Of a stretch of 64,000 nt of DNA, positions 2,236 through 60,586 are shown piece after piece. Below the pieces are notes generated by a model, which had not been told where the DNA came from, searched no databases, and saw only the letters and a list, made by a program, of their open reading frames with translations. The position numbers were made by a program, and so were the translations under genes. Each line of letters opens with the position of its first letter. Position 1 is the stretch's first letter. Origin of the DNA: Candidatus Omnitrophota bacterium (GTDB lineage Bacteria; Omnitrophota; Gorgyraeia; 2-02-FULL-51-18); contig JACQQX010000054.1 of NCBI GenBank assembly GCA_016206805.1, positions 3,743 to 67,742 of the forward strand, given 5' to 3'.

Positions 2236-4584
<2,349 letters not shown>

Positions 4585-4585
<1 letters not shown>

Positions 4586-5583
4586 TAGCCTTTTACCTCT
4601 TTCTTGATCCGCTTTAAAAGTTCTTCCTGAGAAGTGACGGCCACACCCACCTTGCCAACCACAATGCCGGCGGCGCAGTTGGAAATATGCGCGGCCTCGG
4701 AGGCGGTGGCCTTGGAAGCGCGGGCCAGGGTGTAAGCGCTGATCACCGTATCTCCCGCGCCGGAAACGTCAAAAACTTCCTGGGCAACCGTGGGAATTTT
4801 TTCCATTTTCCTGCCTTGCTGGAAAAGCGCCATTCCGTCTTCGCCGAGAGTGATCAATATCGACTCGCCTTTTAATTTTTCCAAAAGTTTCTGGCCGGCT
4901 TTTTCCAGCGTGTAATCGTCTTTAATCGTAAAACCCACCATGCTGGCCGCTTCATGGTGATTGGGGGTGATCGTCGTGACGCCCTTGTAATAAGAAAAAT
5001 GGGATTCTTTGGGATCAACGGTGATCACGCGGTTATGGCTCTTGGCCATTTTGACGCTCTCCCGCACGAGCCGCTCCACGATAACGCCCTTGCCGTAGTC
5101 TTCAATGATGAGCGCGTCGACTTCTGTTATTTTCTTGCGAATAAAATCAAGGATTTGATCCAGCACCGAATCCGGCACCGGCTGAAGTTCTTCGCGGTCG
5201 ATACGGACAACTTGCTGATGGTGAGCGATGACACGCGTTTTCTGCGTCGTGGGCCTTTTGTGGTCGGTGAATACGCCTTCGCAGTTCACGCCTTTTTTGT
5301 GAAGCTGGCTTCTCAAAATCTCGCCACGAGAATCGTCTCCCACCACACCCGCCAGGTGCGCTTCGCCGCCCAAACACCGGATATTATTGGCCACGTTGGA
5401 AGCCCCGCCCGGCATAAAGTTTTCCGAGTCCACCCACACCACAGGCACCGGCGCTTCCGGAGAAATCCGGGAAACTTTTCCCCAGATAAACTCATCCAAA
5501 ATGAGATCGCCGACAACAAGGACTTTGGCTTTATTAAAGCGGGAAATAACCTGACTTAAGCGAGCAAAATTAAGAAATTTCAT
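4585..5583 (-). CDS. hldA: D-glycero-beta-D-manno-heptose-7-phosphate kinase (RfaE domain I type, PfkB family)
   Basis: PfkB kinase with VLVVGDLILDEFIWG...SPEAPVPV and GAGDTV motifs. I prefer the ATG at 5583 (MKFLNF...). The ORF track extends to a GTG at 5601. Confidence 0.85.
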
Positions 5584-6121: not shown

Positions 6122-6544
6122 CTATCGTTGAATGCGTCCCAAGCGCGTCACTTCCCTAAAATGCATTTTATCCACCGGCTGAACCGACAACCGCGTCCCC
6201 CGCTTCGTCACCAACATCCCCTGGAGTTTTTTATCGGCTTTGAGCTCTTCCAACGCCACAAAGCGTTTGAATTTTTCCACAAACTCCACATCCACCATCA
6301 CCCACCCCGCCTCTTTGATAGTGGAATCAGGATACCCCTCTCTAACAACCCGACAAACCCCCGCTACCCCCGAAGGATCCGCATTCGAATGATAAAAAAG
6401 AACCAGATCGCTTTTACGCATCTGATCCCGCATAAAATTCCGAGCCTGATAATTCCGAACCCCCTCCCAAGAAGTAACCCCATCCCTCTCAAGATCATCA
6501 ATAGAATAAGTAGCAGGCTCGCTTTTCATTAACCAGTATTTCAT
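6122..6544 (-). CDS. EVE (PUA-like) domain protein
   Basis: 140 aa. MKYWLMKSEPATYSIDDL...WEGVRNYQARNFMR...VLFYHS is typical of the EVE/DUF55 family. Confidence 0.8.
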   Translation of the reverse strand: MKYWLMKSEPATYSIDDLERDGVTSWEGVRNYQARNFMRDQMRKSDLVLFYHSNADPSGVAGVCRVVREGYPDSTIKEAGWVMVDVEFVEKFKRFVALEELKADKKLQGMLVTKRGTRLSVQPVDKMHFREVTRLGRIQR

Positions 6545-7221: not shown

Positions 7222-7288
7222 TATCGCCTGAAGGTTAATAACCGTCATCTGTCAGCGATCTCCACTATCTTACGCTTGGCCTTATGCC
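7222..7288 (-). pseudogene. displaced remnant of the DUF167 3' end plus the first 9 codons of a cupin-like gene (direct repeat copy A)
   Basis: 59/67 nt identical to 8332..8398. Encodes ...SGHKAKRKIVEIADR* followed by MTVINLQAI..., compared with SGHRAKRKIVEIATR* and MTAINLQAI in the intact genes. Confidence 0.75.
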
Positions 7289-7295
7289 CTGAAAA

Positions 7296-8076: not shown

Positions 8077-8358
8077 CTATCTCCCAAAATACCCGTAAAG
8101 CCAGCGGGAGGTGGAGTCGCTGAGGTTGCGGACAGAGTGGACGGTTTTTGCCGGAATCAAAACTTCTTTGCCGCGTGGCGGGCAGGATTTCTTGCCTTGC
8201 ATTTCTAGTTCTACATTCCCTTCCAAGACCAGGAAGAGCTCATCGGTGTCGTGAACATAGTTTTCCCAGACCTGCCCCGGCGGGTCGGTCCAGACAGCGA
8301 AGCTAAAGCCGCGCGCTTTCCAGTCTTTTTGTATCGCCTGAAGGTTAATAGCCGTCAT
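8077..8358 (-). CDS. small cupin domain protein
   Basis: 93 aa. Cupin_2-like core HDTDELFLVLEGNVELEM...IPAKTVHSVRN. Confidence 0.7.
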   Translation of the reverse strand: MTAINLQAIQKDWKARGFSFAVWTDPPGQVWENYVHDTDELFLVLEGNVELEMQGKKSCPPRGKEVLIPAKTVHSVRNLSDSTSRWLYGYFGR

Positions 8359-8398
8359 CGTGTAGCGATCTCCACTATCTTGCGCTTGGCCCTATGGC
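8332..8398. repeat. direct repeat copy B (DUF167 3' end / cupin 5' end junction)
   Basis: Pairs with 7222..7288, exactly 1110 bp away (59/67 identity). Confidence 0.8.
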
Positions 8399-8579
8399 CA
8401 GAGACGATGGTGACGAGCGACTTGGGCACGCCAAAGCGCTCTTTAAGCGCCCGAATAACCGCCTCATTGGCCAACCCCTCCCGGGGCGGCGCCTTCACGG
8501 TGACGCGATAATGCTTCTCATCGATTTTCTCAACCGACTCCCTCTTAGAGCCCGCCTTCACCTGGACGGATATTTTCAT
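8355..8579 (-). CDS. DUF167 (YggU) family protein
   Basis: MKISVQVKAGSKRESVEKI...VKAPPREGLANEAVIRALKERFGVPKSLVTIVSGHRAKRKIVEI. I prefer the ATG at 8579, which forms an ATGA overlap with the upstream gene stop. The ORF track extends to 8639. Confidence 0.8.
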   Translation of the reverse strand: MKISVQVKAGSKRESVEKIDEKHYRVTVKAPPREGLANEAVIRALKERFGVPKSLVTIVSGHRAKRKIVEIATR

Positions 8580-19231: not shown

Positions 19232-19258
19232 AGGATCAAATCCGAAACACGGAAAGAT

Positions 19259-19372
19259 AATGCAAAATGTAAAATGAGAAATGTAAAAAATGGTGTCCCT
19301 TCGGGACATTTCATTAGTCTAAGTCGCGGCGGCGACTCCTTATTTTTCATTTTGCATTCTTCATTTTTCATT
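19259..19372 (+). repeat. Family R2 palindromic element, copy a (A-rich AATGnAAA arms plus two GC hairpins)
   Basis: AATGCAAAATGTAAAATGAGAAATGTAAAAAATGG-TGTCCCTTCGGGACA-...-AGTCGCGGCGGCGACT-CCTTATTTTTCATTTTGCATT. Fills the xerC-waaA spacer. Confidence 0.85.
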
Positions 19373-19397
19373 AGCTGATTTCGTGCTTGCCTTTAAT

Positions 19398-26152: not shown

Positions 26153-26988
26153 TGCCTCAAAGCTTCCAGCATGATTTGACGGACACCCTCCTTCTGACCG
26201 GTCCAGAGTCCGAAGGAAATAGCCGCTTGCCCGGCCAGCATTCCTAAACCATTGGCATGCCGGCGGCCCTGCTCGCGCGCTTTTTTGAGTAAAAGTGTTT
26301 CGGTTGGAGAATAAACCAAATCATAAACGGCCGCTTCTTTTTTGAGAAATTGTAAATCAAACGCCGCCGGATCCTCGGCGCGCATCCCACAGGAAGTCGC
26401 GTTCACCAAAAGATGGATCTTCTCGTCCTTGGCGTGTTCGGGCGAATGGAGGATTTTAACCTCCGTCTCGGGGAAATGGGTTTTGAGATAACCCTGAAGG
26501 CCATGAGCCCGCTCGATCGTACGATTAAAAATATAAATTTTATCGGCGCCGGCATGCGCGAGCGCGAACACCACGCCGCGCGCGGCTCCTCCCGCTCCCA
26601 AAACTAAAATGCTTTTGGTTTCCGGATTGAATTGCAGTTCTTCGCGAAGCGCTCCCAAAAATCCGGGAACGTCCGTGTTGTAACCCAGCAGTCTCCCGTC
26701 GCGGTTCACCACTGTGTTGATGGCGCCAATGCAGCGGTCCAGGTCCGTCGGCACCTCATCGACAAAATTGATGGCGTCTTCTTTGTGGGGCAGCGTGATG
26801 TTAAGGCCTTTAATTTGAAGCGCGCGCATGGCCTCAAAAGCCAGACCCAAAAATTCTTTGTCGACCTGAAAAGCCAGATAAGCGGCGTTAATGCTGAGTT
26901 TTTGAAACGCGGCGTTATGGATCTTTGGGGAAAGCGAGTGGCGGATGGGATTACCGATCACGCCGTAAAGCGCGGTGCGGCTGTCCAC
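26149..26988 (-). CDS. aroE: shikimate dehydrogenase
   Basis: 279 aa. GVIGNPIRHSLSPKIHN, NITLPHK and GAGGAARG motifs. Confidence 0.92.
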   Translation of the reverse strand: MDSRTALYGVIGNPIRHSLSPKIHNAAFQKLSINAAYLAFQVDKEFLGLAFEAMRALQIKGLNITLPHKEDAINFVDEVPTDLDRCIGAINTVVNRDGRLLGYNTDVPGFLGALREELQFNPETKSILVLGAGGAARGVVFALAHAGADKIYIFNRTIERAHGLQGYLKTHFPETEVKILHSPEHAKDEKIHLLVNATSCGMRAEDPAAFDLQFLKKEAAVYDLVYSPTETLLLKKAREQGRRHANGLGMLAGQAAISFGLWTGQKEGVRQIMLEALRQ

Positions 26989-28538
26989 TAGACGCCGTGC
27001 GCGGTTGGCGACTTCTTGGAGATTTTGTGCGCGAGTTTATTGAGGGCGTCAAGATAGGCTTTGACGCTGGCCTCAATCACATCGGTGCTCAGCCCCTGAC
27101 CGATGATGACCTCGTCCTTTTCGCCCGCGACCTTCACCGTGACTTCGCCTTGCGCGTCTTCGCCGACGGTGACGGAGCGGATTTGATAATCCAAAAGACG
27201 GGTCTTGGCGCCCAATAGTTTATCAATAGTCTGATAAGACGCGTGGACCGGGCCATTGCCCGTGCCTTCGGCCTCGATGGTTTTATTTTTATGCTTGATC
27301 TTGATCGACACCCACGGAGCCTTGCCGCTTTCGGTGCGCATACCCAAATGGATCAATTCATAGGTCTTGGGAGCCGCCGTGACCTCTTTGTCGACAAGTG
27401 CCGTCAAATCTTCATCAAACACTTCTTTTTTGCGGTCAGCCAGCGTTTTAAAGTTGTCAAAAACAAGCGCGAGTTCTTTTTCGCTCAGTTTGTACCCCAA
27501 TTTTTGCAGGCGATTTTCAAGCGCATGCCGGCCGGAATGCTTGCCCAGCACCAGGCGCGTTTCACCGAAACCCACGTCCTGGGGACGCATGATTTCATAA
27601 GTCTTGCGGAGTTTCAAAAGCCCGTCCTGATGGATGCCCGACTCATGCGTGAACGCGTTGCGGCCCACAACGGCCTTATTGGGCTGGACAATCATGCCCG
27701 TGAGCGAGCTGACCAAGCGACTGGACTTACAAATCTGATCGCGGCGAACGTTAGTGAATTTACCGGCAAAAATATCCTTACGGGTATCCAGCGCCATGAC
27801 GATTTCTTCCATCGCGGCGTTTCCGGCGCGCTCACCGATGCCGTTCACCGTGCACTCCACCTGACGCGCGCCGAACTTCACCGCCGCCAATGAATTGGCC
27901 ACCGCTAAACCCAAATCATTATGGCAATGCACGCTAATGATGGCTTTATGGATATTGGGAACATTTTCAAAAATACCTTTGATGAGGCTGCCAAACTCGA
28001 AAGGCGTCGTATAGCCCACGGTATCGGGAATATTCACAACCGTGGCGCCGGCATCGATCACTTGGCGTATCACTTCATACAAAAATGGCGGCTCGGTGCG
28101 CGAGGCGTCCTCGGGCGAAAATTCGACTTCGCCGATATGCTGGCGAGCGTGCTTCACGGCCCAGGTGGCGATGCGAACAATCTCATCCTTGGCTTTGTTG
28201 AGCTTGTGCTTGCGATGGATTTCCGAGGTCGCGATAAAAATATGCAAGCGTGAGCGCTTGGCCGGTTTCAAACAGTCCAGCGCGATATCGATATCTTTTT
28301 GCAAAGCCCTCGCCAGCGCGCAAATCGTGGGGCCCTTGATCTCTTTGGCGATTCTTTTGACGGCTTCGGCGTCTCCGGGAGAGGTCACTGGAAAACCGGC
28401 TTCGATAACGTCAACACGGAGCTCCGCCAACTGACGAGCGATCTCGAGTTTCGATTTCTCGTCAAGCGAAGCGCCGGGAGACTGCTCGCCGTCCCGAAGC
28501 GTCGTATCAAATATGTAAATGCGTTTAGAATCAGTCAT
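26988..28538 (-). CDS. leuA: 2-isopropylmalate synthase
   Basis: IYIFDTTLRDGEQSPG, HCHNDLGLAVANSLAA and a C-terminal LeuA dimerisation/regulatory domain. I prefer the ATG at 28538 (MTDSKR...). The track ORF to 28643 reads through repeat R2b. Confidence 0.88.
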   Translation of the reverse strand: MTDSKRIYIFDTTLRDGEQSPGASLDEKSKLEIARQLAELRVDVIEAGFPVTSPGDAEAVKRIAKEIKGPTICALARALQKDIDIALDCLKPAKRSRLHIFIATSEIHRKHKLNKAKDEIVRIATWAVKHARQHIGEVEFSPEDASRTEPPFLYEVIRQVIDAGATVVNIPDTVGYTTPFEFGSLIKGIFENVPNIHKAIISVHCHNDLGLAVANSLAAVKFGARQVECTVNGIGERAGNAAMEEIVMALDTRKDIFAGKFTNVRRDQICKSSRLVSSLTGMIVQPNKAVVGRNAFTHESGIHQDGLLKLRKTYEIMRPQDVGFGETRLVLGKHSGRHALENRLQKLGYKLSEKELALVFDNFKTLADRKKEVFDEDLTALVDKEVTAAPKTYELIHLGMRTESGKAPWVSIKIKHKNKTIEAEGTGNGPVHASYQTIDKLLGAKTRLLDYQIRSVTVGEDAQGEVTVKVAGEKDEVIIGQGLSTDVIEASVKAYLDALNKLAHKISKKSPTAHGV

Positions 28539-28550
28539 AATTAATATAAT

Positions 28551-28653
28551 TAATGAAAAATTTTGAATGTAAAATGTAAAATATTGTGTCGCAAATGCGA
28601 CTTCTATAAGTCCCGCAGGGACTCCATTTTTTACATTTTTCATTTTTCATTTT
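28551..28653 (-). repeat. Family R2 palindromic element, copy b (inverted orientation relative to a, c, d)
   Basis: Contains GTCGCAAATGCGAC and AGTCCCGCAGGGACT hairpins and a CCATTTTTTACATTTTTCATTTTTCATTTT arm. Fills the ilvC-leuA spacer. Confidence 0.85.
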
Positions 28654-28659
28654 ACGTTA

Positions 28660-29643
28660 CTACATCCATTTCATCATGCCGCGGAGCTTAGCGCCCACCA
28701 CTTCCACGGGATGCTTGTCATCCGCGCGGCGGAGCTTCTCGAATTTATTTTTGTCCTTATAAGTCGCCAGAAATTCCTTGGCGAACTTGCCGGACTGCAC
28801 TTCTTTCAAAATCTTCTTCATTTCTTTTTGCGTTTGCTTGTTGATCACGCGGGGGCCGCGGGAAAGATCCCCGTATTCGGCCGTATCGGAAACGCGCTTG
28901 CGCATCCCCTGCACGCCGCCGGCATAAATCAAGTCCGTGATCAGCTTGAGCTCGTGCAAGCATTCAAAATAAGCGACTTCCGGCTGATAGCCGGCGTTCA
29001 CCAGCGTTTCAAAACCCGCTTTGATCAGAGCGCTCGTGCCGCCGCACAAAACAGCCTGCTCACCGAAAAGATCGGTTTCCGTTTCTTCTTTAAAAGTAGT
29101 TTCGATAACGCCCGCACGGGTGCCGCCCAGCGCCTTGGCATAAGCCAACGCTACTTTCTTGGCGTTTTTAGTCGCGTCCTGATGCACGGCGATCAAACAA
29201 GGAACGCCTTTCCCCTCCTCGTAAAGACGGCGAACCAGGCTTCCCGGACCTTTAGGCGCGATCATGAACACGTCGACAAATTTGGGCGGAACGATTTGTT
29301 TGAAATGAATATTGAAGCCGTGCGAAAAAACCAGCGCCTTTCCTTTGGTCAAATAAGGCTCAACGGAATTCTTATAAATATCCGCCTGCAAAGGATCCTG
29401 CGCGAGAATAATAATCATGTCCGAGTTTTTTGCCGCTGTCGCCGCGTCCACCGGATCAAACCCGTCTTTTTTGGCCTGATCGTAGTTTGGTCCACCGGGC
29501 CTCTGGGAAACAATAACCTTCACACCGCTATCGCGAAGATTGAGCGCCTGGCCACGGCCTTGAATGCCGTAACCGATAACCGCCACCGTTTTATCCTTGA
29601 TGAATGAAAGATCCGCGTCGTTGTCGTAATAAATCCTGGCCAT
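28660..29643 (-). CDS. ilvC: ketol-acid reductoisomerase
   Basis: 327 aa. [21 protein letters not shown] and typical class I KARI sequence. Confidence 0.95.
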
Positions 29644-29672
29644 GTCAATTCTCCCTTAAACGTAACAAACAT

Positions 29673-29777
29673 AATGAAAAATACAAAATGAGAAATTTAA
29701 AAAATGGAGTCCCTTTGGGACTTTCATCAAAAGTCGCGCAGCGACACATTATTTTACATTTTGCATTTTTAATTTTA
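29673..29777 (+). repeat. Family R2 palindromic element, copy c
   Basis: AATGAAAAATACAAAATGAGAAATTTAAAAAATGG-AGTCCCTTTGGGACT-...-GTCGCGCAGCGAC-...ATTTTACATTTTGCATTTTTAATTTT. Fills the ilvN-ilvC spacer. Confidence 0.85.
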
Positions 29778-29780
29778 CTT

Positions 29781-30290
29781 TCATTTCGGTTCCTTTTTCG
29801 ACAGCGCGACCGCGCCTGTCTGCGCGATTTCGAGAATGTCGTGTCCTTTTAAAGTTTCAAAAAGTTTCTTTCGATTCTCCCGGGCCTCGGTGCACTCGAT
29901 CGTGGTGATCTTGGCGTTTTCTTCGACGACATGCACCTTGTATGTTTTCATGATCGATTCGAGCGCCTTCTTCAGCTCGGGGGTAGTCCTGAACTTAACA
30001 AGCATCAGCTCGCGGTCGATGTAACCTTCATCGCCCAGGTCCTGCACCTTGATCACGTCGATGAGTTTATTGAGCTGCTTTTTAAGCTGCTCCAGCGTTT
30101 TCTCGTCAACCCTGGCGACAAGCGTAATGCGCGACATGGTCGGGTCTTCGGTTTCTCCCACGGCCAGCGAATCGATATTGAAACCGCGCGCCGCAAAAAG
30201 CCCGATCACATGCGACAAAACGCCCGCCCTATTCTCAACCAACACAGACAATATTCTTTCTTTTATCGGGGTGGTTTCATGAACTGCCAT
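29781..30290 (-). CDS. ilvN: acetolactate synthase small (regulatory) subunit
   Basis: 169 aa. ACT domain LSVLVENRAGVLSHVIGLFAARGFNIDSLAVGETED. Confidence 0.92.
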   Translation of the reverse strand: MAVHETTPIKERILSVLVENRAGVLSHVIGLFAARGFNIDSLAVGETEDPTMSRITLVARVDEKTLEQLKKQLNKLIDVIKVQDLGDEGYIDRELMLVKFRTTPELKKALESIMKTYKVHVVEENAKITTIECTEARENRKKLFETLKGHDILEIAQTGAVALSKKEPK

Positions 30291-32619: not shown

Positions 32620-32840
32620 GGTTTTCCTCCTTTCCATGATTCCTTACTTAAAGGATACACGAAGCGATTCGGAATGTCAAATTCTAGATCAATAAACCAT
32701 TCCAGAGCGGGCTCTTTGACTTCCCGGATCCTGGGATTCCAAAGCATCCATTTTCCATTGACTTGCCGAACATCCCAATAGCCCTCAACCGAAGGGGTCA
32801 CCGAAGGGGCCGAAGGGGTCAAGTCTTTTCCTGACTGCAT
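32616..32840 (-). CDS. possible small ORF (74 aa) upstream of the AbrB/RelE-like pair; uncertain
   Basis: The stop overlaps the antitoxin ATG as ATGA. The N-terminal codons (MQSGKDLTP...) lie inside the 27-nt repeat motif, so the true start is unclear. No recognisable family. Confidence 0.25.
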   Translation of the reverse strand: MQSGKDLTPSAPSVTPSVEGYWDVRQVNGKWMLWNPRIREVKEPALEWFIDLEFDIPNRFVYPLSKESWKGGKP

Positions 32841-32877
32841 GCCGAAGGGGTCAAGTCTTTTCCTGACTGCATGTTTG
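32790..32877. repeat. CGAAGGGG(T/C) short repeats plus two tandem copies of the 27-nt motif GGGGTCAAGTCTTTTCCTGACTGCATG
   Basis: Motif copies at 32815..32841 and 32847..32873. CGAAGGGG units at about 32790, 32802, 32811 and 32843. Related to 7296..7384. Confidence 0.8.
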
Positions 32878-34030: not shown

Positions 34031-34092
34031 TGTAAACCCTGAGATACGGCTACTGAGTCCGCACACGATTTCGTACGGAATGGCCCCCATCT
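34031..34092 (-). pseudogene. displaced remnant of an alanine racemase 3' end (direct repeat copy C)
   Basis: The core 34043..34090 is 44/48 identical to 37708..37755 inside alr. It encodes ..GAIPYEIVCGLSSRI.., compared with ..GTIPYEIVCGLSSRI.. in intact alr. Confidence 0.75.
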
Positions 34093-37623: not shown

Positions 37624-38847
37624 TTACTCTAAGCTATTGTAAACCCGATGGCAACCTGCGCGTGAGCGCTTGGACTCATTACGAGTAAACCGCTTGTAGA
37701 TTCTGGGGATACGGCTACTGAGTCCGCATACGATTTCGTAAGGAATGGTCCCTATCCAGCGGGCGAGGTCTTCGGCGAGGACCCTGATTGCGCCGTCCTG
37801 ACCGATGAGCGTCACCTCATCCCAGCGTTTCGCCGATGGGAGTGCCCCCACGTCCACCAGCGTCTGGTCCATGGTGACGCGGCCCACGACGGGACAGGCC
37901 CTCCCGCGCACGATGACGTGGCTTTTATTTGAAAGCGCCCACCGGTAGCCGTGGCTGTAACCCACGGGCAGGGTGGCGATGCGCGTCGGGCGCGACACGC
38001 GATGGGTGGCGCCATAACTTAAGACCCGCCCCTTCCCCGCGTCCTTCAAAAAAGCGATTCGCGTCTTGAGACTCAAAATGGGGCGAATGCCACGCGGCAG
38101 TTTTTCATCCGACGGCCTCAGGCCGTACAAAATAATGCCTGGTCTCACGAGATTGAGGTGCGATTTTTTGAAACGAATCACCCCGAGGCTGTTGGCCGCG
38201 TGCCGGTAGCGGGCCCTGACACCCCGGGCTTCCAGGCGCGCGATCACCTTTTCGAAACAATCCAGCTGATCGAGTGTGTGAATTTTTTCCGAGTGATCGG
38301 CGCGGGAAAAGTGCGTGTAAAGCCCTTCCACGGTGATGTTTTCCATCCGGGCGATTTCCAAAACAAAGTCCTCGGCATGCTCATGCCACACGCCGAGCCG
38401 GCCCATGCCGGTGTCGATTTTGACATGCACGGGGAATCGGCCGTTTTCGGGCGCGGCCTCCTCAAAAAACCGGGCGTCTTCCGCTGACGACACCGTGGGC
38501 GTGATCCGGTGGCGGATAAAAAGGCGGACCTGACTCCGGTGACAACTGCCCAGAACCAGAATCCGCGCCGCAGGAAGGGCTTTTCGGAGAGCCATCGCCT
38601 CATCGAGTGTCGCCACACCAAAAAAATTCACTCCACCCTTCTGCAAGGCCTTGGCCACGGGAACCATTCCGTGGCCGTAAGCGTCCGCTTTCACGATGGC
38701 CAGCACTTCTGTTTTTTGATTTTTTAAAATACGGCGGACGACTTTTAAATTGTTGATCAGAGCATCTAGGTGCACTTCGGCCCATAGGAGCGGAGTTGGG
38801 GTCGACGTTGGGGTCTGACCCCCGACCAATGGCCTCTTGGCGCTCAT
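37624..38847 (-). CDS. alr: alanine racemase
   Basis: AIVKADAYGHG PLP-lysine motif and the Alr C-terminal domain. I prefer the ATG at 38847 (ATGA overlap with the tsaB stop). It has an unusual N-terminal PLVGGQTPTSTPTP extension and a roughly 23-aa C-terminal extension after RIYK. Confidence 0.88.
   Translation of the reverse strand: MSAKRPLVGGQTPTSTPTPLLWAEVHLDALINNLKVVRRILKNQKTEVLAIVKADAYGHGMVPVAKALQKGGVNFFGVATLDEAMALRKALPAARILVLGSCHRSQVRLFIRHRITPTVSSAEDARFFEEAAPENGRFPVHVKIDTGMGRLGVWHEHAEDFVLEIARMENITVEGLYTHFSRADHSEKIHTLDQLDCFEKVIARLEARGVRARYRHAANSLGVIRFKKSHLNLVRPGIILYGLRPSDEKLPRGIRPILSLKTRIAFLKDAGKGRVLSYGATHRVSRPTRIATLPVGYSHGYRWALSNKSHVIVRGRACPVVGRVTMDQTLVDVGALPSAKRWDEVTLIGQDGAIRVLAEDLARWIGTIPYEIVCGLSSRIPRIYKRFTRNESKRSRAGCHRVYNSLE
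37695..37756. repeat. direct repeat copy D (inside the alr 3' region)
   Basis: Pairs with 34031..34092. The two copies bracket the hydrolase and autotransporter genes. Confidence 0.8.
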
Positions 38848-39916: not shown

Positions 39917-40787
39917 CCTTTTTTAAAATACGAAGGCCGTATTTTTTTTCAACGACTTTTCCGATCGGGTGGATGGGCGCCATTTTTTTTCTGTCATAAG
40001 TCAACGTGAGCTTTGCCGCGTCGCGGGGCGCAAGCGTAAAAAGAAGCTCGAAGTCCTCGCCATCCGTCAAAGCTTTTTGCAGATTTTCATATTTGGAAAC
40101 AGGGATAGCGTCTTCGCTGAGAATAAACCCCACCCGACTAGCCTGCGACATGCGCGTCAAATCCGATGCCAGACCGTCCGAAAGGTCCATCATCGCGTGG
40201 ATTTTAAAATGCTCTGTCAGATAGCGCGCTTCTTTGATTCTCGGCGTGAAATTTAAATGTTTTTTTGAGGAATAACTGCCGCCAAGTTCCCCAGTGACAA
40301 ACACGACATCCCCCGCTTTGGCTCCCGAACGCAGCGCCGCTTTCCCGCGGCCGACCTCTCCCAAAAGAGCCACGCTGATGATTATTTTATCCGAATGATT
40401 GGTATCCCCTCCCACCAGCTTCACGCCAAAGGCGCGCGCCAAATCATTCATCCCCTTGTACAAATCTTTCACAAAATCTACCCGCAAGTCGGACGGCACT
40501 CCCAAAGCCACCACCGCGCATTGAGGCGCGCCACCCATGGCCGCGATATCGCTCACGTTCACGGCAAGCGCTTTTCGGCCGATCTCATACGCGGTGGCTT
40601 CCCCACGCCGGAAATGCCGGTCTTCGATCAGCATGTCCGTTGTAAAAAGAAGGTCTTTGGCGCCGCCCAAACGCAGCACCGCGGCGTCATCGCCAATCCC
40701 CATCACAACGGACTTATCCGCTTTCTTCACCCATCCACGGATTTGTTCAATCAAACCAAACTCACCGATGGCGTTGAGTGTTTTCAT
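39870..40787 (-). CDS. thiL: thiamine-monophosphate kinase
   Basis: 305 aa. IGDDAAV...TTDMLIEDRHF and AIR synthase-like fold motifs. Confidence 0.9.
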   Translation of the reverse strand: MKTLNAIGEFGLIEQIRGWVKKADKSVVMGIGDDAAVLRLGGAKDLLFTTDMLIEDRHFRRGEATAYEIGRKALAVNVSDIAAMGGAPQCAVVALGVPSDLRVDFVKDLYKGMNDLARAFGVKLVGGDTNHSDKIIISVALLGEVGRGKAALRSGAKAGDVVFVTGELGGSYSSKKHLNFTPRIKEARYLTEHFKIHAMMDLSDGLASDLTRMSQASRVGFILSEDAIPVSKYENLQKALTDGEDFELLFTLAPRDAAKLTLTYDRKKMAPIHPIGKVVEKKYGLRILKKDGTYSLLEGKGFEHF

Positions 40788-41557
40788 TTTAATTCCTTCA
40801 GCCCAAAAAAATGAGCGGCGGTTTGAGTGGTCGTGTTTTCAAGCTCTTCGACGCTAATTTTACGGGACTGGGCCAGAAAACGCGCCACGTCCACCAAGTG
40901 CGCCGGCTCATTGCGCTTTCCACGATGGGGCTGAGGCGCCAAATAAGGAGAATCGGTTTCCAGCATGATGCGGTCCAAGGGTATTTGGGTAGCCACTTCA
41001 AGAAGCGCTCCGGCATTTTTAAAAGTAATATTCCCCGTGAAAGACGCATGAAATCCCAAATCCAAAAGCTTGAAAAGGGCCGTTTCATCGTAAGAAAAGC
41101 AATGCATGACCCCCTTAAGGCGTCCCTTGTGTCGGGCGAGCATCTCAAAGGTATCCTCAAACGCGTTGCGGGAGTGAACGATAACCGGAAGCTCGGCGTC
41201 CATGGCGATGCCCAGCATGCGCTCAAATACTTTCTTTTGAACGGCAGGAGCCGCCTCGCTTTTAAAATAATCCAAACCGATCTCGCCAATTGCCGAGGGT
41301 TTTTTCTCTTTTACAAAACGTTCTAGAGTTTTCCAGTCCTCATCCCCTATTTCATGCGCGGAATGCGGATGAAGTCCGGCTGTAAATCGCATAAAAGAAT
41401 GCTGGCTGGCCAGCTTCCAAGCCGCTTCATTGTTTTGAGGATCAGTGCCGACGTTGATCAGTCCCTTCACCCCAGCCGCGCGGGCCCGATCAATCACCGC
41501 GTCACGGTCAGCGTCAAAAGCATCAAAATGAAGATGGCAATGAGTATCTACCAACAT
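40784..41557 (-). CDS. tatD: TatD family metal-dependent hydrolase
   Basis: 257 aa. MLVDTHCHLHF...IGEIGLDY...HSR...ETDSPYL. Confidence 0.9.
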   Translation of the reverse strand: MLVDTHCHLHFDAFDADRDAVIDRARAAGVKGLINVGTDPQNNEAAWKLASQHSFMRFTAGLHPHSAHEIGDEDWKTLERFVKEKKPSAIGEIGLDYFKSEAAPAVQKKVFERMLGIAMDAELPVIVHSRNAFEDTFEMLARHKGRLKGVMHCFSYDETALFKLLDLGFHASFTGNITFKNAGALLEVATQIPLDRIMLETDSPYLAPQPHRGKRNEPAHLVDVARFLAQSRKISVEELENTTTQTAAHFFGLKELK

Positions 41558-41693
41558 AAATTCGAAGCACGAAGCACGAAATTCGAAACAAACTCCAATT
41601 TTTCAAATTTCAATTTTCCAAACCTCTTGTTTGATATTTTGGTCATTTTAATTTTGAATTTGTTTCGTGCTTCGTGCTTCGGATTTCGTGCTT
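41558..41693. repeat. Family R3 136-bp element, copy a (GC-rich CGAAGCACGAA terminal inverted repeats, AT-rich core)
   Basis: AAATTCGAAGCACGAAGCACGAAATTCGAAACAAAC...GAATTTGTTTCGTGCTTCGTGCTTCGGATTTCGTGCTT. It abuts the tatD ATG and contains the last 17 codons and the stop of the cysteine desulfurase ORF. Confidence 0.85.
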
Positions 41694-42842
41694 ATTTTCT
41701 GTGGATGCTTTTCTCAATCTCTCCACAATCCCCGGTATTTCTTTCAGCACAAAATCGATCTCTTCCTCGGTAGTAAATCGCCCCAGCGAAAACCGGATCG
41801 CCGCGCGGGCCAGTTTCTCCGGCAGTCCCATGGCGATCAACACATGCGACGGCTCCACCGAACCCGCCGTGCAGGCCGAACCCGTGGAAACATAGATTTT
41901 TTTGAGGTCCAGGTTCATGAGAAGAGTTTCGCCGTCCAGGCCCTCGAAAGACATGTTGAGCGTATTGGCCACACGCCTTTGGGGATCGCCATTCACCTGC
42001 ACATTCCCGACGGCGGACTTAAAACCATTTTCCAGTTTATCTCTCAACACGCCGACTCTTTTCATATCGCCGGCATATTCGGCGGCAACCAGCTCCACCG
42101 CTTTTCCGAATCCCACAATGCCGGCCACATTCTCAGTGCCCGGACGCATATTTTTTTCCTGATGGCCTCCATGCGTAACGGCCTTGAGCTTCACGCCTTT
42201 GCGGACATAAAGCGCGCCGATGCCCTTGGGGCCGTAAATTTTATGCGCGGAAACTGACAACAGATCTATTCCCATCCCCTCAATGTCGATAGGAATTTTC
42301 CCGAAAGACTGGACGGCGTCCGTGTGAAACCAGGCCCCATGGCGATGCGCGAGAGCCGCGATTTCACCAATAGGCTGAATGGTGCCGACTTCATTATTGG
42401 CGTGCATGATGCTGACAAGCGCCGTTCGATCCGTTATCGCCTTTTCCAGCTCATCCGCCCGCACGATGCCTTGAGCGTCCACGGGAACAACGGTGACCTT
42501 AACGCCTTTTTTAGATAAATATTGCGCGGCATGCAAAATGGCTTGGTGTTCAATGGCCGAAACCACCAGATGATCCCTGCCCGGCGCGCGTTCTTCCATG
42601 GCGCCTTTCAAAGCAAGATTGTCCGCCTCGGTGCCGCCCGAGGTAAAAACAATATCCCCCGGCTCCACATCGAGAAAATCAGCCAGCCTCTCACGCGACT
42701 GATCAATCGCGTGTCGCGTAGCCTGGCCTTTTTGATGAAAACTGGAAGCATTGCCAAACTGTTCGAAAAAAAAGGGTTTCATAGCTTCAAAAACCCGCGC
42801 ATCCACCGGAGTAGTGGAATTATAGTCGAGGTAAGCTTCCAT
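41643..42842 (-). CDS. cysteine desulfurase (NifS/IscS-like, class V aminotransferase)
   Basis: 399 aa. PLP-lysine SAHKIYGPKG and catalytic loop STGSACTAGS. The C-terminal tail ...ENKHEIRSTKHETNSKLK is encoded by repeat R3a. Confidence 0.9.
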   Translation of the reverse strand: MEAYLDYNSTTPVDARVFEAMKPFFFEQFGNASSFHQKGQATRHAIDQSRERLADFLDVEPGDIVFTSGGTEADNLALKGAMEERAPGRDHLVVSAIEHQAILHAAQYLSKKGVKVTVVPVDAQGIVRADELEKAITDRTALVSIMHANNEVGTIQPIGEIAALAHRHGAWFHTDAVQSFGKIPIDIEGMGIDLLSVSAHKIYGPKGIGALYVRKGVKLKAVTHGGHQEKNMRPGTENVAGIVGFGKAVELVAAEYAGDMKRVGVLRDKLENGFKSAVGNVQVNGDPQRRVANTLNMSFEGLDGETLLMNLDLKKIYVSTGSACTAGSVEPSHVLIAMGLPEKLARAAIRFSLGRFTTEEEIDFVLKEIPGIVERLRKASTENKHEIRSTKHETNSKLK

Positions 42843-43109
42843 CTAAAATCCTTTATAGGTCTTCTCGTTACGCCGCACAACGCGCAAAATAACTACACGA
42901 GCTTCTTTATCCAATATAGCGTAAACAATCCGCCAATCACGGAACCGAACCCGATGCAATGTTTGATCTAGCTTTTTTACTCCAAATGGCCTTGGGTTCC
43001 GAGCCAAAGAGAAAATGGTTTTATCTATTTTAGAAAATATTTCTTTGGGCAGCTTGTCCAGATCCCTTTCAGCATGGGGTTCTAGAGCAATGTCATAGAG
43101 CTTGTTCAC
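42843..43109 (-). CDS. relE: RelE/ParE family toxin
   Basis: 88 aa. ...LHRVRFRDWRIVYAILDKEARVVILRVVRRNEKTY is the typical RelE/StbE pattern. Its TAG stop is immediately followed by the desulfurase ATG. Confidence 0.8.
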   Translation of the reverse strand: MNKLYDIALEPHAERDLDKLPKEIFSKIDKTIFSLARNPRPFGVKKLDQTLHRVRFRDWRIVYAILDKEARVVILRVVRRNEKTYKGF

Positions 43110-43339
43110 TATCGCTTCAGCCGTTTGGTCCGATAAGAAGCGTAGGAAGTGCTTTTGGCGGGTTGGGCTTGATAGCTTTGAAGACGCTCATGCCCGACGC
43201 GTAAATCTTCAATATCCTCTTGGTATAAGGTTTCCAGTGCCTCTGTCACAAGCTTGGCAATGGAGGTTCCCCTCTCAACAGCCAAATGTTTAATCGACTT
43301 ATGTAGCGCCTCTGGCAAATACACCATTGTTCGAATCAT
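43109..43339 (-). CDS. ribbon-helix-helix (CopG/RelB-like) antitoxin
   Basis: 76 aa. TMVYLPEALHKSIKHLAVERGTSIAKLVTEALETLY is an RHH motif. 1-nt overlap with the toxin start. Confidence 0.75.
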   Translation of the reverse strand: MIRTMVYLPEALHKSIKHLAVERGTSIAKLVTEALETLYQEDIEDLRVGHERLQSYQAQPAKSTSYASYRTKRLKR

Positions 43340-46514: not shown

Positions 46515-47908
46515 TCAGTTTTACCACCAGGCAAGTCCGTCAATAGGATGCCTTTTGCCAGTAACTTTTGACGAATTTTATCTGCCAGTTTAAAATTTTT
46601 ATTCCTTTTCGCTTCATCTCGTTGATAAATACCCTCTTCAATTTCTTGTTTAAGCTCCTTATCCACCACTCTCAGCTTTGCCGGATCCATATCCAAGCAA
46701 AGAACTTTCTCAAAAAATAAACGAATTTTTCTGGCCGTGTCCAGAAAGAGATCCGCCTGTTTATGCTGGATAAGTCTGGCATATGCCAAATCAATCATGT
46801 TATGAAAAACAGCTAAAACCTGCGGGGTATTAAAATCATTGTCCATTGCTCTTTCAATATCTGAGCCAAATGAAACCAACTCCGTTTTTGTTTTACTGGT
46901 CAATTGGGAGGCTTTATCAAAAAAATTCAAAAAACGCTCTCTAATGGCCCGCGCCATTTGCATCTTCTCTTCCGAGTAATCTAACGGCATAGAATAATGA
47001 GTGAGCAAGAAAAGCATCTTTAGATCTTCAATTGCATGAGGGTTTTTATCTTCAAGCGTTTTTAGCGTTATAAAGTTTTTTAATGATTTGGACATTTTCT
47101 GGCCATTGACGGTAATCAGTCCGTGATGGACCCAGTAGCTGACCGGATTTGTACCCGTTAACCCTTCAAATTGCGCTATCTCATTTTCATGATGCGGGAA
47201 GATTAAATCCAAACCGCCGCCGTGAATATCAAAAACGTCCCCAAGATATTTTTGGCTCATCGCTGAACATTCAATATGCCAGCCAGGCCGTCCTTTACTC
47301 CAAGGACTTTCCCAAAAGGGCTCTCCCTCTTTGGATTTTTTCCAAAGAGCGAAATCCAGAGGATTCCGTTTCTTTTCATTCTTTTCAATACGGACATTTT
47401 TTAGGATGGCATCCGTATCCTGATGGGACAATTTACCGTACCCGGGAAATTTTTTGACATCATAATAGACATCGCCATCGCTGAGATAAGCGATATTCCT
47501 GTCAATCAGTCCTGATATAAACTTTATCATATCGGGAATGTGCTTGGTTGCCCAGGGCTCATGATCAGGGTCTCTAATACCAAATTTGATTAAATTCTCG
47601 TGATAAAGACTATAAAATCTGGTGGAAACATTTTTTGTTTCTAGGCTGAGATCTCCGTTGGACGATCGTGCTTTCTCAATAATTTTGTCATCAATATCAG
47701 TCACATTTCGAACAAATGTAACTTCATATTTATGACTGCTCTTCGCCAGATAGTTGCGCATTACTTCAAAAACATAGACGGATCGAAGATGACCAATATG
47801 AGGTTCGTCATAAACGGTAGGCCCGCAAACATACATCCGAACCTGCCCTTTTTTTAGAGGCTCAAATACTTCCTTTTGACGTTTAAGAGAATTATAGATT
47901 TCAAGCAT
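46499..47908 (-). CDS. cysS: cysteine--tRNA ligase
   Basis: 469 aa. CGPTVYDEPHIGH and KMSKSLKN motifs. The start ATG shares one base with the brnA-2 TAA stop (TAATG). Confidence 0.95.
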   Translation of the reverse strand: MLEIYNSLKRQKEVFEPLKKGQVRMYVCGPTVYDEPHIGHLRSVYVFEVMRNYLAKSSHKYEVTFVRNVTDIDDKIIEKARSSNGDLSLETKNVSTRFYSLYHENLIKFGIRDPDHEPWATKHIPDMIKFISGLIDRNIAYLSDGDVYYDVKKFPGYGKLSHQDTDAILKNVRIEKNEKKRNPLDFALWKKSKEGEPFWESPWSKGRPGWHIECSAMSQKYLGDVFDIHGGGLDLIFPHHENEIAQFEGLTGTNPVSYWVHHGLITVNGQKMSKSLKNFITLKTLEDKNPHAIEDLKMLFLLTHYSMPLDYSEEKMQMARAIRERFLNFFDKASQLTSKTKTELVSFGSDIERAMDNDFNTPQVLAVFHNMIDLAYARLIQHKQADLFLDTARKIRLFFEKVLCLDMDPAKLRVVDKELKQEIEEGIYQRDEAKRNKNFKLADKIRQKLLAKGILLTDLPGGKTEWRKL

Positions 47909-48180
47909 TATGCGGCAATAGCGTGTGAGACATATTTATGAATAATGCTGGCCACAAGCGTCTGATAGGGAATACCCTCTTCAGCGGCCCTGACTTTGAT
48001 TCGATTCAAATCGGCTTTTGAAATACGGATGTTCATTCTCTGATCCTTTTTAAGCGTGTTTCTGGCAATAACAGCGTAATGTGCCAATTCCCGCTTAGTT
48101 GGCTTAACCGCTTTCCATTCCCCCTGCTCAATAGAGTCAAGAATATCCTGCTCTTCTTTATCCAGTTTATACTTCTTCAT
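47908..48180 (-). CDS. brnA: BrnA-type antitoxin, pair 2
   Basis: 90 aa. MNIRISKADLNRIKVRAAEEGIPYQTLVASIIHKYV. Paralog of 6641..6895. Confidence 0.75.
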   Translation of the reverse strand: MKKYKLDKEEQDILDSIEQGEWKAVKPTKRELAHYAVIARNTLKKDQRMNIRISKADLNRIKVRAAEEGIPYQTLVASIIHKYVSHAIAA

Positions 48181-48454
48181 CGTTTCCTCCCAATAAATAC
48201 TGTTTTGTCAGTTTGCGGCTCGGTATAATTGTTTTCAAAAAAATCTTTTGCTCATTTTCCACAAAAGGGACGACATAAACGTACTCGTTGATAACAAGAA
48301 TGAACTGTTTTTGATGCTGGTAACGCCCCTTTCCCGGAACTATCTTTAAAATTGACCCTTCTCCCAAAGCTGTTACAACAGCCTCAAAAGAGATTCCTCT
48401 TTCCAAAATGAGCTTCTGATTTTTTGCCTGATCCCACTCGTAGAGTTTATCCAC
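48167..48454 (-). CDS. brnT: BrnT-type (DUF497-like) toxin, pair 2
   Basis: 95 aa. YEWDQAKNQKLILERGISFE...VYVVPFVENEQKIFLKTIIPSRKLTKQYL. GTG start. Paralog of 6892..7152. Confidence 0.7.
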   Translation of the reverse strand: MDKLYEWDQAKNQKLILERGISFEAVVTALGEGSILKIVPGKGRYQHQKQFILVINEYVYVVPFVENEQKIFLKTIIPSRKLTKQYLLGGNDEEV

Positions 48455-48590: not shown

Positions 48591-49316
48591 TTAGTGGGAT
48601 TTCTTGTGAGGAGGGTTTCCATCGAAATCTTTGAGTTCGTTTTCGATTTTGTCGATTTCGTGCTGGAGTTTTTCAAGCGCTTGAGTGAGGGGGTCCGGCA
48701 GCGTCGTGTAGTCGAGATTGATGCCATGCGGCAGCTTGCGGCCTTGCCGGCTGGCGATACGACCCGGCACGCCCACCACCGTCGAGTTGGCGGGAACATC
48801 ACGCAAAACAACAGCATTGGCGCCCACACTGACATTGTCACCGATATGGATATTGCCTAAAATCTTGGCGCCGGTGCCGATAACAACATTGTCGCCGAGC
48901 GTAGGATGCCGCTTACCCTTTTCTTTACCGGTGCCGCCCAACGTTACCCCTTGAAAAAGCGTCACATTGTCGCCGATAACGCTTGTTTCGCCGATCACCA
49001 CTCCCATGCCATGATCGATAAAAAAACGCTTGCCGATGACAGCGCCCGGGTGGATTTCAATGCCGGTGATCCAGCGGGCCGACTGGGAAATAAAGCGCGC
49101 CAGAAAAAAGAAACGGGCCTTATGCACCGCGTGGGCGATGCGGTAATAAAAAAGCGCGTGTAGTCCCGGATAGGTGAGAATCACGCTGATCTCTCCGGCC
49201 GCCGCCGGATCACGCTCCATCACCGCTTTGACATCATCATTGAAAAAAATCTTATAAATTACGACTTTTGCCGCGATTAGCGAAACAATGACAAGTATCA
49301 GGATAAGAAAAATCAA
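48591..49316 (-). CDS. cysE: serine O-acetyltransferase
   Basis: ERDPAA...[14 protein letters not shown] plus hexapeptide repeats ([25 protein letters not shown]). The only upstream start is a TTG at 49316, giving a hydrophobic N-terminal 19 aa. The start is uncertain. Confidence 0.88.
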
Positions 49317-49333
49317 GTCAGATTCCTCCGGTT

Positions 49334-49469
49334 AAATCCGAAGCGCGAATATCGAAATCCGAAACAAATTCAAATTTTTCAAATTTCAATTTTATAAACA
49401 TCTTGTTTGATTTTTTGGTCATTCTAATTTCTAATTTGTTTCGTGCTTCGCGCTTCGGATTTCGTGCTT
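49334..49469. repeat. Family R3 136-bp element, copy b
   Basis: AAATCCGAAGCGCGAATATCGAAATCCGAAACAAATTC...TAATTTGTTTCGTGCTTCGCGCTTCGGATTTCGTGCTT. It contains the last 15 codons and the stop of ispF. Confidence 0.85.
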
Positions 49470-49936
49470 TTTTCTATAAGCGCTGTCGCCCAGCAGGCGA
49501 TCGCGTCGCCTTTGCCGATAGCGCCAAAGCCTTCGTTGGTTTTTGCCTTGATCCCGATCCGATCCAAAGCGATGCCGAAGTCCCGCGCGATATTTTTTTT
49601 CATCGCTTCCCGGTAAGGCCCCATCTTGGGCAATTCCGCCAAAATAACCGCGTCCACATTGGCGACCGACCAGCCCTTTCTCTTCAAAAGCGCTTTTGTT
49701 TTAGAGGCAAAAAGCGCGCTGCCGGCGTTCTTGAAAGCGGGGTCCGTGTCAGAAAAGTGCGCGCCGATATCCCCCTCACCCATGGCGCCCAAAAGCGCGT
49801 CCACCAACGCGTGATAAAGCGCGTCCGCGTCCGAATGCCCGGCAAGCCCCTTGTTGAAAGGGATGGCGACACCTCCCAGCACCAGCTTACGCCCTTTTTT
49901 CAGGGCGTGAATGTCATACCCGATTCCGGTGCGCAT
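49424..49936 (-). CDS. ispF: 2-C-methyl-D-erythritol 2,4-cyclodiphosphate synthase
   Basis: MRTGIGYDIHAL...GHSDADALYHAL...GDIG. I prefer the ATG at 49936 (the track ORF starts at 49960). The C-terminal tail ...STKSEARSTKQIRN is encoded by repeat R3b. Confidence 0.9.
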   Translation of the reverse strand: MRTGIGYDIHALKKGRKLVLGGVAIPFNKGLAGHSDADALYHALVDALLGAMGEGDIGAHFSDTDPAFKNAGSALFASKTKALLKRKGWSVANVDAVILAELPKMGPYREAMKKNIARDFGIALDRIGIKAKTNEGFGAIGKGDAIACWATALIEKSTKSEARSTKQIRN

Positions 49937-50603
49937 AAAATTGATAAAGGTCGACGTCATCGGGTGTTGTGATTTTCAAATTTTGTTTTTCCCCTTCCAC
50001 CAGCTTCACGCGAACACCGGATCCTTCAAAAAGCCCGGCTTCATCGGTGGCCAAAAACGCTTTCTTGCCCAAACGGCGATAAGCCTGACGCAAAAGATCT
50101 TTCCGGAATACCTGCGGCGTTTGGGCCAAAAAAAGCCGCTCCCGCTTAACGGTTCTCCGGACGTACTCATTTTTGGCGTCGGCTTCTTTTACCGTCGCCG
50201 CGACAGGCTCCACGGGAATAGCCGCGCCCGTTTCGCGAACGCCATCCAAAAGTCTTTTACAAAGAGCGGGACTCACCAGCGGCCGCGCCGCGTCGTGCAC
50301 CAGCACCCATTCGGAAGAGGGCGCTGTTTCCAAAAAAGCGTTTCGGACCGATTCGGCGCGGGTCTTGCCCCCCGCCACAACTTTTACTTTGGCGATTTTT
50401 TCGCCATCCACCAGCTGAATGATTTCCCGCAAATGACGCGCGGGCGCGGCGATAACAATGTCCAAAAACGCGTGGCAGCGCTTTAACCGCGCCAGGGTGT
50501 GCAATAAAAGCGGCTTGCCGTCGATCTCGAATAAAGCTTTTGATCCTTTGGCCTTCAAACGCCGTCCCAGCCCCGCTGCCGGAACAATGGCCGACACCTT
50601 CAT
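49914..50603 (-). CDS. ispD: 2-C-methyl-D-erythritol 4-phosphate cytidylyltransferase
   Basis: MKVSAIVPAAGLGRRL...HDAARP. I prefer the ATG at 50603, 1 nt after the upstream stop. The track ORF starts at 50630. Confidence 0.9.
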   Translation of the reverse strand: MKVSAIVPAAGLGRRLKAKGSKALFEIDGKPLLLHTLARLKRCHAFLDIVIAAPARHLREIIQLVDGEKIAKVKVVAGGKTRAESVRNAFLETAPSSEWVLVHDAARPLVSPALCKRLLDGVRETGAAIPVEPVAATVKEADAKNEYVRRTVKRERLFLAQTPQVFRKDLLRQAYRRLGKKAFLATDEAGLFEGSGVRVKLVEGEKQNLKITTPDDVDLYQFYAHRNRV

Positions 50604-60414: not shown

Positions 60415-60435
60415 AAAACTCCTTACGAAGACGTT

Positions 60436-60545
60436 AATGCAAAATTTGAAATGAAAAATGTAAAAAATGGAGTCCCTTCGGGACTTATAATGAAAGCCGC
60501 GCCAGCGGCTCCTTATTTTTCATTTCGCATTTTTCACTTTGCATT
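60436..60545 (+). repeat. Family R2 palindromic element, copy d
   Basis: AATGCAAAATTTGAAATGAAAAATGTAAAAAATGG-AGTCCCTTCGGGACT-...-AGCCGCGCCAGCGGCT-CCTTATTTTTCATTTCGCATTTTTCACTTTGCATT. Lies in the lolD-ilvE spacer. Confidence 0.85.
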
Positions 60546-60586
60546 GTCTGTTCCAAATTTTGCATGCATTGTCTGTTCCAAATTTT
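60541..60586. repeat. tandem duplication of the 21-nt unit GCATTGTCTGTTCCAAATTTT
   Basis: Units at 60541..60561 and 60566..60586, separated by GCAT. They directly follow R2d. Confidence 0.85.

Follow-up and report, generated by a model that had tools for sequence, protein, structure and literature searches.

MITEs are non-coding sequences of less than about 500 bp with terminal inverted repeats, multiple copies, a target-site duplication and a cognate autonomous IS, and in the ERIC/IRU, Correia and MITE families the duplicated target is TA. Some ERIC, Correia and REP copies have been shown to act as RNA hairpins in polycistronic mRNA. REPINs are doublets of REPs, which are units of 20-40 nt, and are mobilised by RAYT tyrosine transposases, the RAYT gene being flanked by REPs in the same genome. 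The foldback (FB) elements of eukaryotes, which are much larger, have long inverted arms made of short tandem sub-repeats around a variable middle. RPEs (Rickettsia palindromic elements) are palindromic repeats of about 100-150 bp that are open in several reading frames, occur in frame within unrelated genes or at their ends, and add peptides to them (PMC10969869). ERIC/IRU, Correia (NEMIS) and MITE sequences are imperfectly palindromic, about 100-150 bp long and bounded by terminal inverted repeats; they are dispersed in transcribed intergenic spacers, are co-transcribed, can fold in mRNA and are sometimes fused to ORFs (PMC10969869, PMC3733652). REPINs are described as hairpin-forming doublets of about 100 nt, lineage-amplified, with no target duplication and unlinked to a mobilising gene (PMC3116915, PMC3733652), in which each REP is a short palindrome bearing the tag GTAG or CGTC (PMC3733652).

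Here we compare with these systems a 136-nt element that occurs twice in the window, that is, in the whole 64,000-nt stretch of Omnitrophota DNA that was analysed. Its behaviour is closest to that of RPEs, ERIC and Correia MITEs, and REPINs, but it cannot be assigned to any of them. Like RPEs, the element is frequently open from end to end (271 of 750 element frames, 36%), is found in frame in an NRPS adenylation domain, and forms the tails of NifS and IspF. Unlike RPEs, which belong to one genus, it occurs in many phyla, with Omnitrophota as its host here, and its arms are arrays of 7-nt units; no sequence relationship between the two was detected in a comparison made through Pfam/NCBIfam peptide models only. 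With ERIC, Correia and MITE sequences it shares being a dispersed palindrome that is able to fold in mRNA and is fused to ORFs, and both its size (136 nt with 35-nt inverted arms) and its dispersed copies at unrelated loci agree with the definition of a MITE. A target-site duplication, however, was not detectable in 57 elements, no cognate IS was seen in about 150 loci, and the arms consist of a heptad vocabulary rather than of a unique inverted-repeat sequence. As in REPINs, a hairpin can form, no target duplication was detected and copies have been amplified within a lineage, but the arm consensus, AAATCCGAAATCCGAA...CGAAACAAA, has neither an internal palindrome nor a GTAG/CGTC tag; no RAYT gene was seen near the element, in the 8-kb loci or in the 64-kb window. 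The FB elements provide an analogy only, being eukaryotic and having different repeat units. The heptad-arm design and the identity of the arms across phyla are what set this family apart from known elements.

Two other kinds of site were considered and rejected. Integron attC sites form the 3' end of promoterless cassettes and have RYYYAAC/GTTRRRY core sites at their ends, whereas the termini of the element are AAAT.../...ATTT and its flanks are a conserved housekeeping block in the gene order of its relatives. Intrinsic terminators consist of a GC-rich stem followed by a U tract, and neither copy contains a terminator-like site.

Two copies at two tight gene junctions

The first-pass annotation had described two very similar sequences of equal length, with terminal inverted repeats and an AT-rich core, and this description was borne out. 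Both copies (Table 1) are 136 nt long and align without gaps at 120 of 136 positions. A repeat search of the window recovered the pair as 41557-41697 and 49333-49473, without gaps and at 88% identity; a 24-nt arm probe matched exactly two sites in the window, namely copies a and b, with a chance expectation of 0.00; and a family HMM search found no third copy in the 64 kb. On the gene strand, which is the minus strand, each copy has a 35-nt 5' arm, a 66-nt core and a 35-nt 3' arm, for which the identities between copies are 34/35, 57/66 and 29/35, respectively. The arms are inverted repeats of CGAAGCA/CGAAATC-type units with 37-49% GC, as compared with 18-24% GC in the cores. The 5' arm is the same five-unit array in both copies, with AAGC(A/G)CG as its third unit, and the 3' arm of both begins with TTTGTTTCG and continues in NNNTTCG units; in the predicted fold of copy a the two arms pair with each other, leaving a 7-nt bulge. 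The flanks of the two copies are unrelated. A small ORF in the core (MTKISNKRF... / MTKKSNKMF...) was rejected as a gene, the differences between copies being mostly amino-acid-changing and the ORF having no Shine-Dalgarno sequence.

All four junction genes, namely nifS, tatD, ispF and cysE, lie on the minus strand. Each upstream gene takes its last 14-16 codons and its stop from the element, and the C-termini read ...ENKHEIRSTKHETNSKLK for the nifS-like ORF and ...EKSTKSEARSTKQIRN for ispF. On the downstream side, copy a touches the ATG of tatD and copy b ends 17 nt before the TTG of cysE, with a GGAGG in between; both junctions had been read in this way at first, and the sequence agrees. Judged against the syntenic relative, the true start of IspF is probably an internal MRTG.

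Table 1. Coordinates of the two element copies and of the genes at their junctions, in window positions.
Feature	Position	Strand	Evidence or remark
Copy a, 136 nt, nifS/tatD junction	41558..41693	-	Repeat family D2; family HMM matches on both arms
Copy a 5' arm, heptad array AAGCACG AAATCCG AAGCACG AAGCACG AAACAAA	41659..41693	-	
Copy a AT-rich core, 24% GC; contains nifS stop and motif ATGACCAAAA	41593..41658	-	
Copy a 3' arm, TTTGTTTCG AATTTCG TGCTTCG TGCTTCG AATTT	41558..41592	-	
Cysteine desulfurase (NifS/IscS-like) ORF, 399 aa	41643..42842	-	100% match to an Omnitrophica MAG protein with Aminotran_5
nifS stop TGA, in copy a core	41643..41645	-	
16 element-encoded NifS tail codons (KHEIRSTKHETNSKLK), arm frame 0	41646..41693	-	Absent from 59 orthologues
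TatD-like ORF (MLVDTHCHL...)	40784..41557	-	Syntenic TatD_DNase gene follows nifS in relatives
tatD start ATG, directly adjoining the copy a 3' end, at the foot of the predicted hairpin	41555..41557	-	
Copy b, 136 nt, ispF/cysE junction	49334..49469	-	Repeat search, family HMM
Copy b 5' arm, AAGCACG AAATCCG AAGCGCG AAGCACG AAACAAA	49435..49469	-	
Copy b AT-rich core, 18% GC; contains ispF stop	49369..49434	-	
Copy b 3' arm	49334..49368	-	
IspF ORF	49424..49960	-	ORF list; compared with syntenic relative
ispF stop TAG, in copy b core	49424..49426	-	
14 element-encoded IspF tail codons (STKSEARSTKQIRN), arm frame 1	49427..49468	-	Absent from the syntenic relative's IspF
17-nt spacer AACCGGAGGAATCTGAC (GGAGG at 49325-49329) and cysE TTG start (49314-49316)	49314..49333	-	
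CysE-like hexapeptide-repeat acetyltransferase ORF	48591..49316	-	ORF list; gene order of relatives

The proposal that both the tail and the stop codon come from the element is upheld by a comparison with relatives. The 59 NifS orthologues, with about 64-71% identity, end in ...ERLRKAST followed by 0-16 unconserved residues, and none of them has the window tail. IspF of L120, a syntenic Omnitrophota contig, ends in ...ASLRGK*, as against ...ALIEK+STKSEARSTKQIRN in the window. The gene order of L120 is the same as that of the window (PIN-ispD-ispF-cysE-cysS-tmk-holB-metG-nifS-tatD-...), its nifS and tatD overlap as ATGA and its ispF and cysE as TAATG, and no family member was found in L120 or in two other contigs (L121 and L122), so that neither L120 junction carries the element. 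Given these element-free overlaps, it is in the window lineage that the element occupies both junctions, with the native stops displaced.

If copy b is excised precisely, a plausible ancestor results, ...ALIEKTGGI*, whose TGA lies 1 nt ahead of the cysE TTG. The same operation on copy a fuses nifS in frame to tatD with no stop, which implies that this junction changed further or that the element boundaries are imprecise, and no clean ancestral state can be derived there. No pair of empty and filled sites was found among close relatives, where the nearest NifS is only about 71% identical, and exact-protein look-ups of TatD, CysE and NifS returned no strain variants with empty sites.

Two side observations concern the same genes. 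Some of the NifS orthologues (P0003, P0004 and P0009, also P0012 and P0040), located on different contigs, have an unconserved C-terminal extension, ...(I/M/L)PEHTKLP, which might be a different repeat or a lineage-specific tail. In addition, the conserved housekeeping block of the window holds two type II toxin-antitoxin pairs (42843-43339 and 47908-48454), namely a ParE_toxin with an RHH antitoxin and a BrnT_toxin with a CopG-like antitoxin. No genes are called at these positions in L120, and thus the block has collected four small insertions in the window lineage.

Size, spread and design of the family

Species-representative genomes were scanned with a loose pattern consisting of CGAAACAAA, 50-80 nt and TTTGTTTCGNNNTTCG. 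The scan returned at least 119 loci, labelled as belonging to about ten phyla, where a rough estimate gives about 2 by chance. Among the 80 matches listed, 24 were labelled Planctomycetota, 24 Desulfobacterota or 'delta', 11 Verrucomicrobiota/Kiritimatiellia/Victivallales, 5 Patescibacteria and 3 Omnitrophota, with one each for Ignavibacteria, Aminicenantes, Armatimonadota and Acidobacteriota; 8 more carried the label Proteobacteria, three of them being contigs from a single 'Alcaligenaceae' MAG, or just 'bacterium'. Extra family copies were found within the 8-kb loci of other genomes. In IMG/VR the pattern matched 2 viral contigs only, and the element had no BLAST match among the PLSDB plasmids or the INPHARED phages.

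All loci have a common architecture, namely AAAT(C/T), 3-5 CGAANNN units, CGAAACAAA, an AT-rich core and then the mirror image. The heptad vocabulary is narrow, with ATC in 38%, GCA in 19%, ATT in 11% and TAT in 8% of 676 units. The exact 32-nt arm of the window copies is present in 33 metagenome contigs of 42-66% GC, with 28 different cores behind it, and the similarity of cores between loci is barely above chance (median 0.59, versus 0.51 for shuffled sequences). The two window cores share 86% identity, well above the between-locus median of 59%, which marks them as siblings that were amplified in this lineage.

No part of the window matched Rfam at the gathering threshold, and a permissive search returned only generic long-hairpin miRNA-precursor matches, far below threshold; a tRNA scan found no tRNA, and no Pfam or NCBIfam model matched the element peptides. 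No description of the family was found in Rfam, Pfam, NCBIfam or the searchable literature, the latter covered by a limited check with arm strings and descriptive terms. It is conceivable, and we propose it only tentatively, that the window copies belong to an undescribed cross-phylum 'heptad-arm' class, which would be characterised by constrained CGAANNN ends, arm identity over at least 32 nt, unrelated cores, tolerance of reading frame, and the lack of any detectable target duplication or linked transposase. If such a class exists, a conserved heptad-binding recombinase or host protein should be present in many phyla.

Two further features of the arms were noticed. About 10 consecutive NNNTTCG heptads are found at L078 6825-6894, as compared with the usual 3-5, which suggests that the arrays can grow by slippage. 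A GC-rich palindromic motif, GCCCCGCGGAC / TCCGCGGGGCCGC, occurs within or beside heptad arms in several unrelated contigs (L009 at about 3290-3310, the 3' arms of L133 and L150, and the 5' flank of L146), and may be a second tiny repeat that targets heptad-arm elements.

Reading frames, tails and gene ends

The first-pass annotation held that both genes enter the element in the same frame and that the resulting tail, RSTK in both cases, implied either selection on the tail or a frame-specific target. Neither statement survives closer inspection. Position 1 of the element is codon phase 1 in nifS and phase 2 in ispF; the 5' arm is read in frame 0 by nifS and in frame 1 by ispF; and the stops differ in the register of the element, with the nifS TGA at position 53 and the ispF TAG at position 48. 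In both tails RSTK comes from CGAAGCACGAA, located in two neighbouring heptads that are read in different frames. This coincidence follows from the periodicity of the arm: because 7 = 1 mod 3, any 7-nt repeat yields a single heptapeptide whichever frame is read, with a shift of phase. For instance, (AAATCCG)n gives KSEIRNP and (AAGCACG)n gives KHEARST in all three frames, and the arm of copy a translates as KHEIRSTKHETNSK in frame 0, which is the NifS tail, and as STKSEARSTKQI in frame 1, which is the IspF tail; the 3' arm translates as GFRISDF or VLRASCF. RSTK thus recurs automatically in both tails, and it is an arithmetic by-product of the 7-nt periodicity, not a selected signal. The event in the window is ordinary in kind, and the most intriguing claim made about it is an artefact of this periodicity.

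A census of 256 non-redundant element sides, in which an incoming ORF was required to have at least 150 codons, extends this result to the family. Such an ORF enters 59 of the sides, in frames that are random (18/21/20; chi-square p = 0.89); 38 of these 59 ORFs stop in the element, whether at the terminal TAA, in an arm or, mostly, in the core, and the other 21 read through. Stop trinucleotides have a density of 0.008 in arms, against 0.040 in cores and 0.031 in flanks, and it is because the arms are stop-poor that upstream ORFs run into the element. As the heptad arms are nearly stop-free and peptide-equivalent in all frames, the element would accept any reading frame when inserted into a gene or beside one. 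Among 88 classifiable family copies, 58 lie between co-directional genes, as do both window copies; copies were also found between divergent or convergent genes and inside ORFs.

It had been anticipated that random frame and random position relative to ORF ends, over all copies, would speak against the original interpretation. Frame is indeed random, but position is not, because copies cluster at gene ends. A gene-end bias is thus real (59/256 sides), yet special targeting is not needed to explain it, since in a compact genome an insertion would be expected to persist only where it hits a short spacer or the very 3' end of a gene.

The element also contributes to genes in places other than their ends. 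In an Aminicenantes MAG (L067 3602-3751) it forms an in-frame segment of an NRPS adenylation (AMP-binding) domain, shortly before the YIIYTSGSTGKPKG motif, and in a different genome (L090 77-205) it occupies the same place in this domain, diverged in sequence and still open, which suggests an inherited and tolerated 50-aa insertion, like those of RPEs. In a Nealsonbacteria MAG of the CPR (L026; MHMH01000011.1), two copies (4625-4723 and 6131-6272) are located at the 5' ends of prepilin-like genes, whose longest ORFs start at the core ATG, the same ATG as that of the small core ORF. Here the element would supply the start codon and the leader, MPKIQSSKHGFRKLEFRISNLFRISIFEFRISKG|FTLIE, and the N_methyl / IV_pilin_GFxxxE motif follows directly after the element leader. 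The donation of a tail, a leader or an internal segment is a general, frame-independent by-product of the family, which shows how a repeat with a 7-nt period becomes frame-neutral and settles in the tight junctions of compact genomes. For annotation this means that these repeats create false C- and N-terminal extensions on unrelated proteins in MAGs of many phyla, which should be masked or flagged, and that apparent conserved peptide motifs such as RSTK, KSEIRNP and GFRISDF arise from the element.

Proposed mode of dispersal and its alternatives

We consider it likely, although by no means certain, that the window sequences are siblings within a dispersed family of palindromic repeats, non-autonomous and of MITE/RPE-like kind, served in trans by a putative recombinase or transposase, and that their tails are neutral. 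The element is probably mobile and mobilised in trans. In the proposed mechanism, the 3-5 direct CGAANNN units at each end (mostly ATC, GCA, ATT and TAT), which end in CGAAACAAA and form arrays inverted around the AT-rich core, would serve as binding arrays for a widely distributed enzyme of this putative kind. A copy would have landed in each of two tight operon junctions, where the native stop is now displaced; the upstream ORF passes through the 5' arm, nearly stop-free in every frame, and ends at the first stop in the stop-rich core, leaving a tail that would be a neutral by-product. Within the mRNA the element could form a hairpin (-38 to -46 kcal/mol), which upstream translation into the 5' arm would presumably keep open, and an open hairpin would help to preserve coupled expression of tatD, whose AUG is located at the base of the stem.

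A test of 57 elements for target-site duplications of 2-9 nt, at all offsets, gave nothing above a shuffled-pair control, which makes a non-DDE enzyme, of the HUH/Y1 or serine type, likelier than a DDE enzyme. No transposase or other recurrent neighbour gene was found in about 150 loci of 8 kb, and an all-against-all clustering of their 2,437 ORFs, run as a search for an autonomous partner, returned only common housekeeping families. The genes found between distant arm pairs, judged by eye from ORF translations, are housekeeping genes of IspA-, XseA-, transaldolase-, HolA- and aminopeptidase-like kind. A TA-target model was rejected, as no more than about 40% of copies are flanked by T...A, and these flanks may equally be an extension of the inverted repeat.

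Three other explanations deserve consideration, one of which, suggested in the first-pass annotation, is that selection acts on the RSTK-containing peptide, which might be a tag for degradation or processing. Both tails do contain RSTK and both are hydrophilic; however, they derive from different frames and different heptads, the tails of the family occur in all three phases with random frames, the C-termini of orthologues are variable and have no RSTK motif, and searches with Pfam and NCBIfam models left the element peptides unmatched, which together make selection of this kind highly implausible. Alternatively, the element may be retained for an RNA hairpin that acts within the polycistronic mRNA, be it in processing, stabilisation, attenuation or translational coupling. 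In favour of this are the strong sense-strand folds, predicted at -45.9 and -38.5 kcal/mol (z = -5.8 and -5.0), the co-directional setting of both window copies and of 58 of the 88 classifiable family copies, one compensatory change between copies (GCACG/CGTGC to GCGCG/CGCGC), and the position of the tatD AUG at the foot of the stem. Yet the tests that could have given positive support to such an intercistronic role, which had also been among the options first raised, did not do so. There is no strand asymmetry (G.U-compatible mismatches, 268 sense versus 249 antisense, p = 0.43), and the variable triplets of the arms do not covary beyond chance (36/109 versus 29 expected, 14/83 versus 11, and 21/89 versus 23). 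Moreover, copies also lie between divergent or convergent genes and inside ORFs, neither window copy has a terminator-like or promoter-like consensus, and no Rfam family matches; on this evidence we regard an RNA function as improbable.

The absence of covariation, together with the constrained 7-nt word, implies that the arms behave as independent arrays, like protein-binding sites, and not as a co-evolving stem. This would also be expected if the arrays were DNA-binding sites of a conserved host protein, such as one of the ribbon-helix-helix type, with a function at the level of the chromosome rather than as selfish DNA; the omega repressor, a ribbon-helix-helix protein, binds heptad repeats. 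The restricted vocabulary, the identical 32-nt arm in front of unrelated cores in genomes of 42-66% GC, the existence of a second window family with AATGNNN heptad arms, and the failure to find a target-site duplication or a transposase are all compatible with this proposal, and the identity of arms in such different genomes could reflect host function. On the other hand, no candidate protein was found, the copies are absent from the syntenic relative L120, some copies are located inside coding regions, their positions look opportunistic, and arrays bound by a transposase would impose the same constraint on the sequence. We thus judge a host binding array to be unlikely, and favour the non-autonomous repeat mobilised in trans. 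Should the arms bind one conserved protein, this would amount to a widespread new mobilisation system or to a new chromosome-associated factor.

The second family in the window has four copies (19249-19377, 28542-28663, 29663-29786 and 60426-60550), in which inverted arms of 7-nt units (AATGNNN / NNNCATT) surround two GC-rich stem-loops (GTCCCTTCGGGAC and GTCGCG.CAGCGAC), and it shares with the 136-nt element the principle of heptad arms. The stop of the ORF at 29781-30290(-) falls inside one of its copies, and the start of the ORF at 26988-28643(-) inside another. Other repeats in the window are a perfect 32-nt tandem duplication (32809-32872), a 49-nt pair with 92% identity (34043-34091 and 37708-37756) and a 71-nt pair with 87% identity (7222-7292 and 8332-8402).
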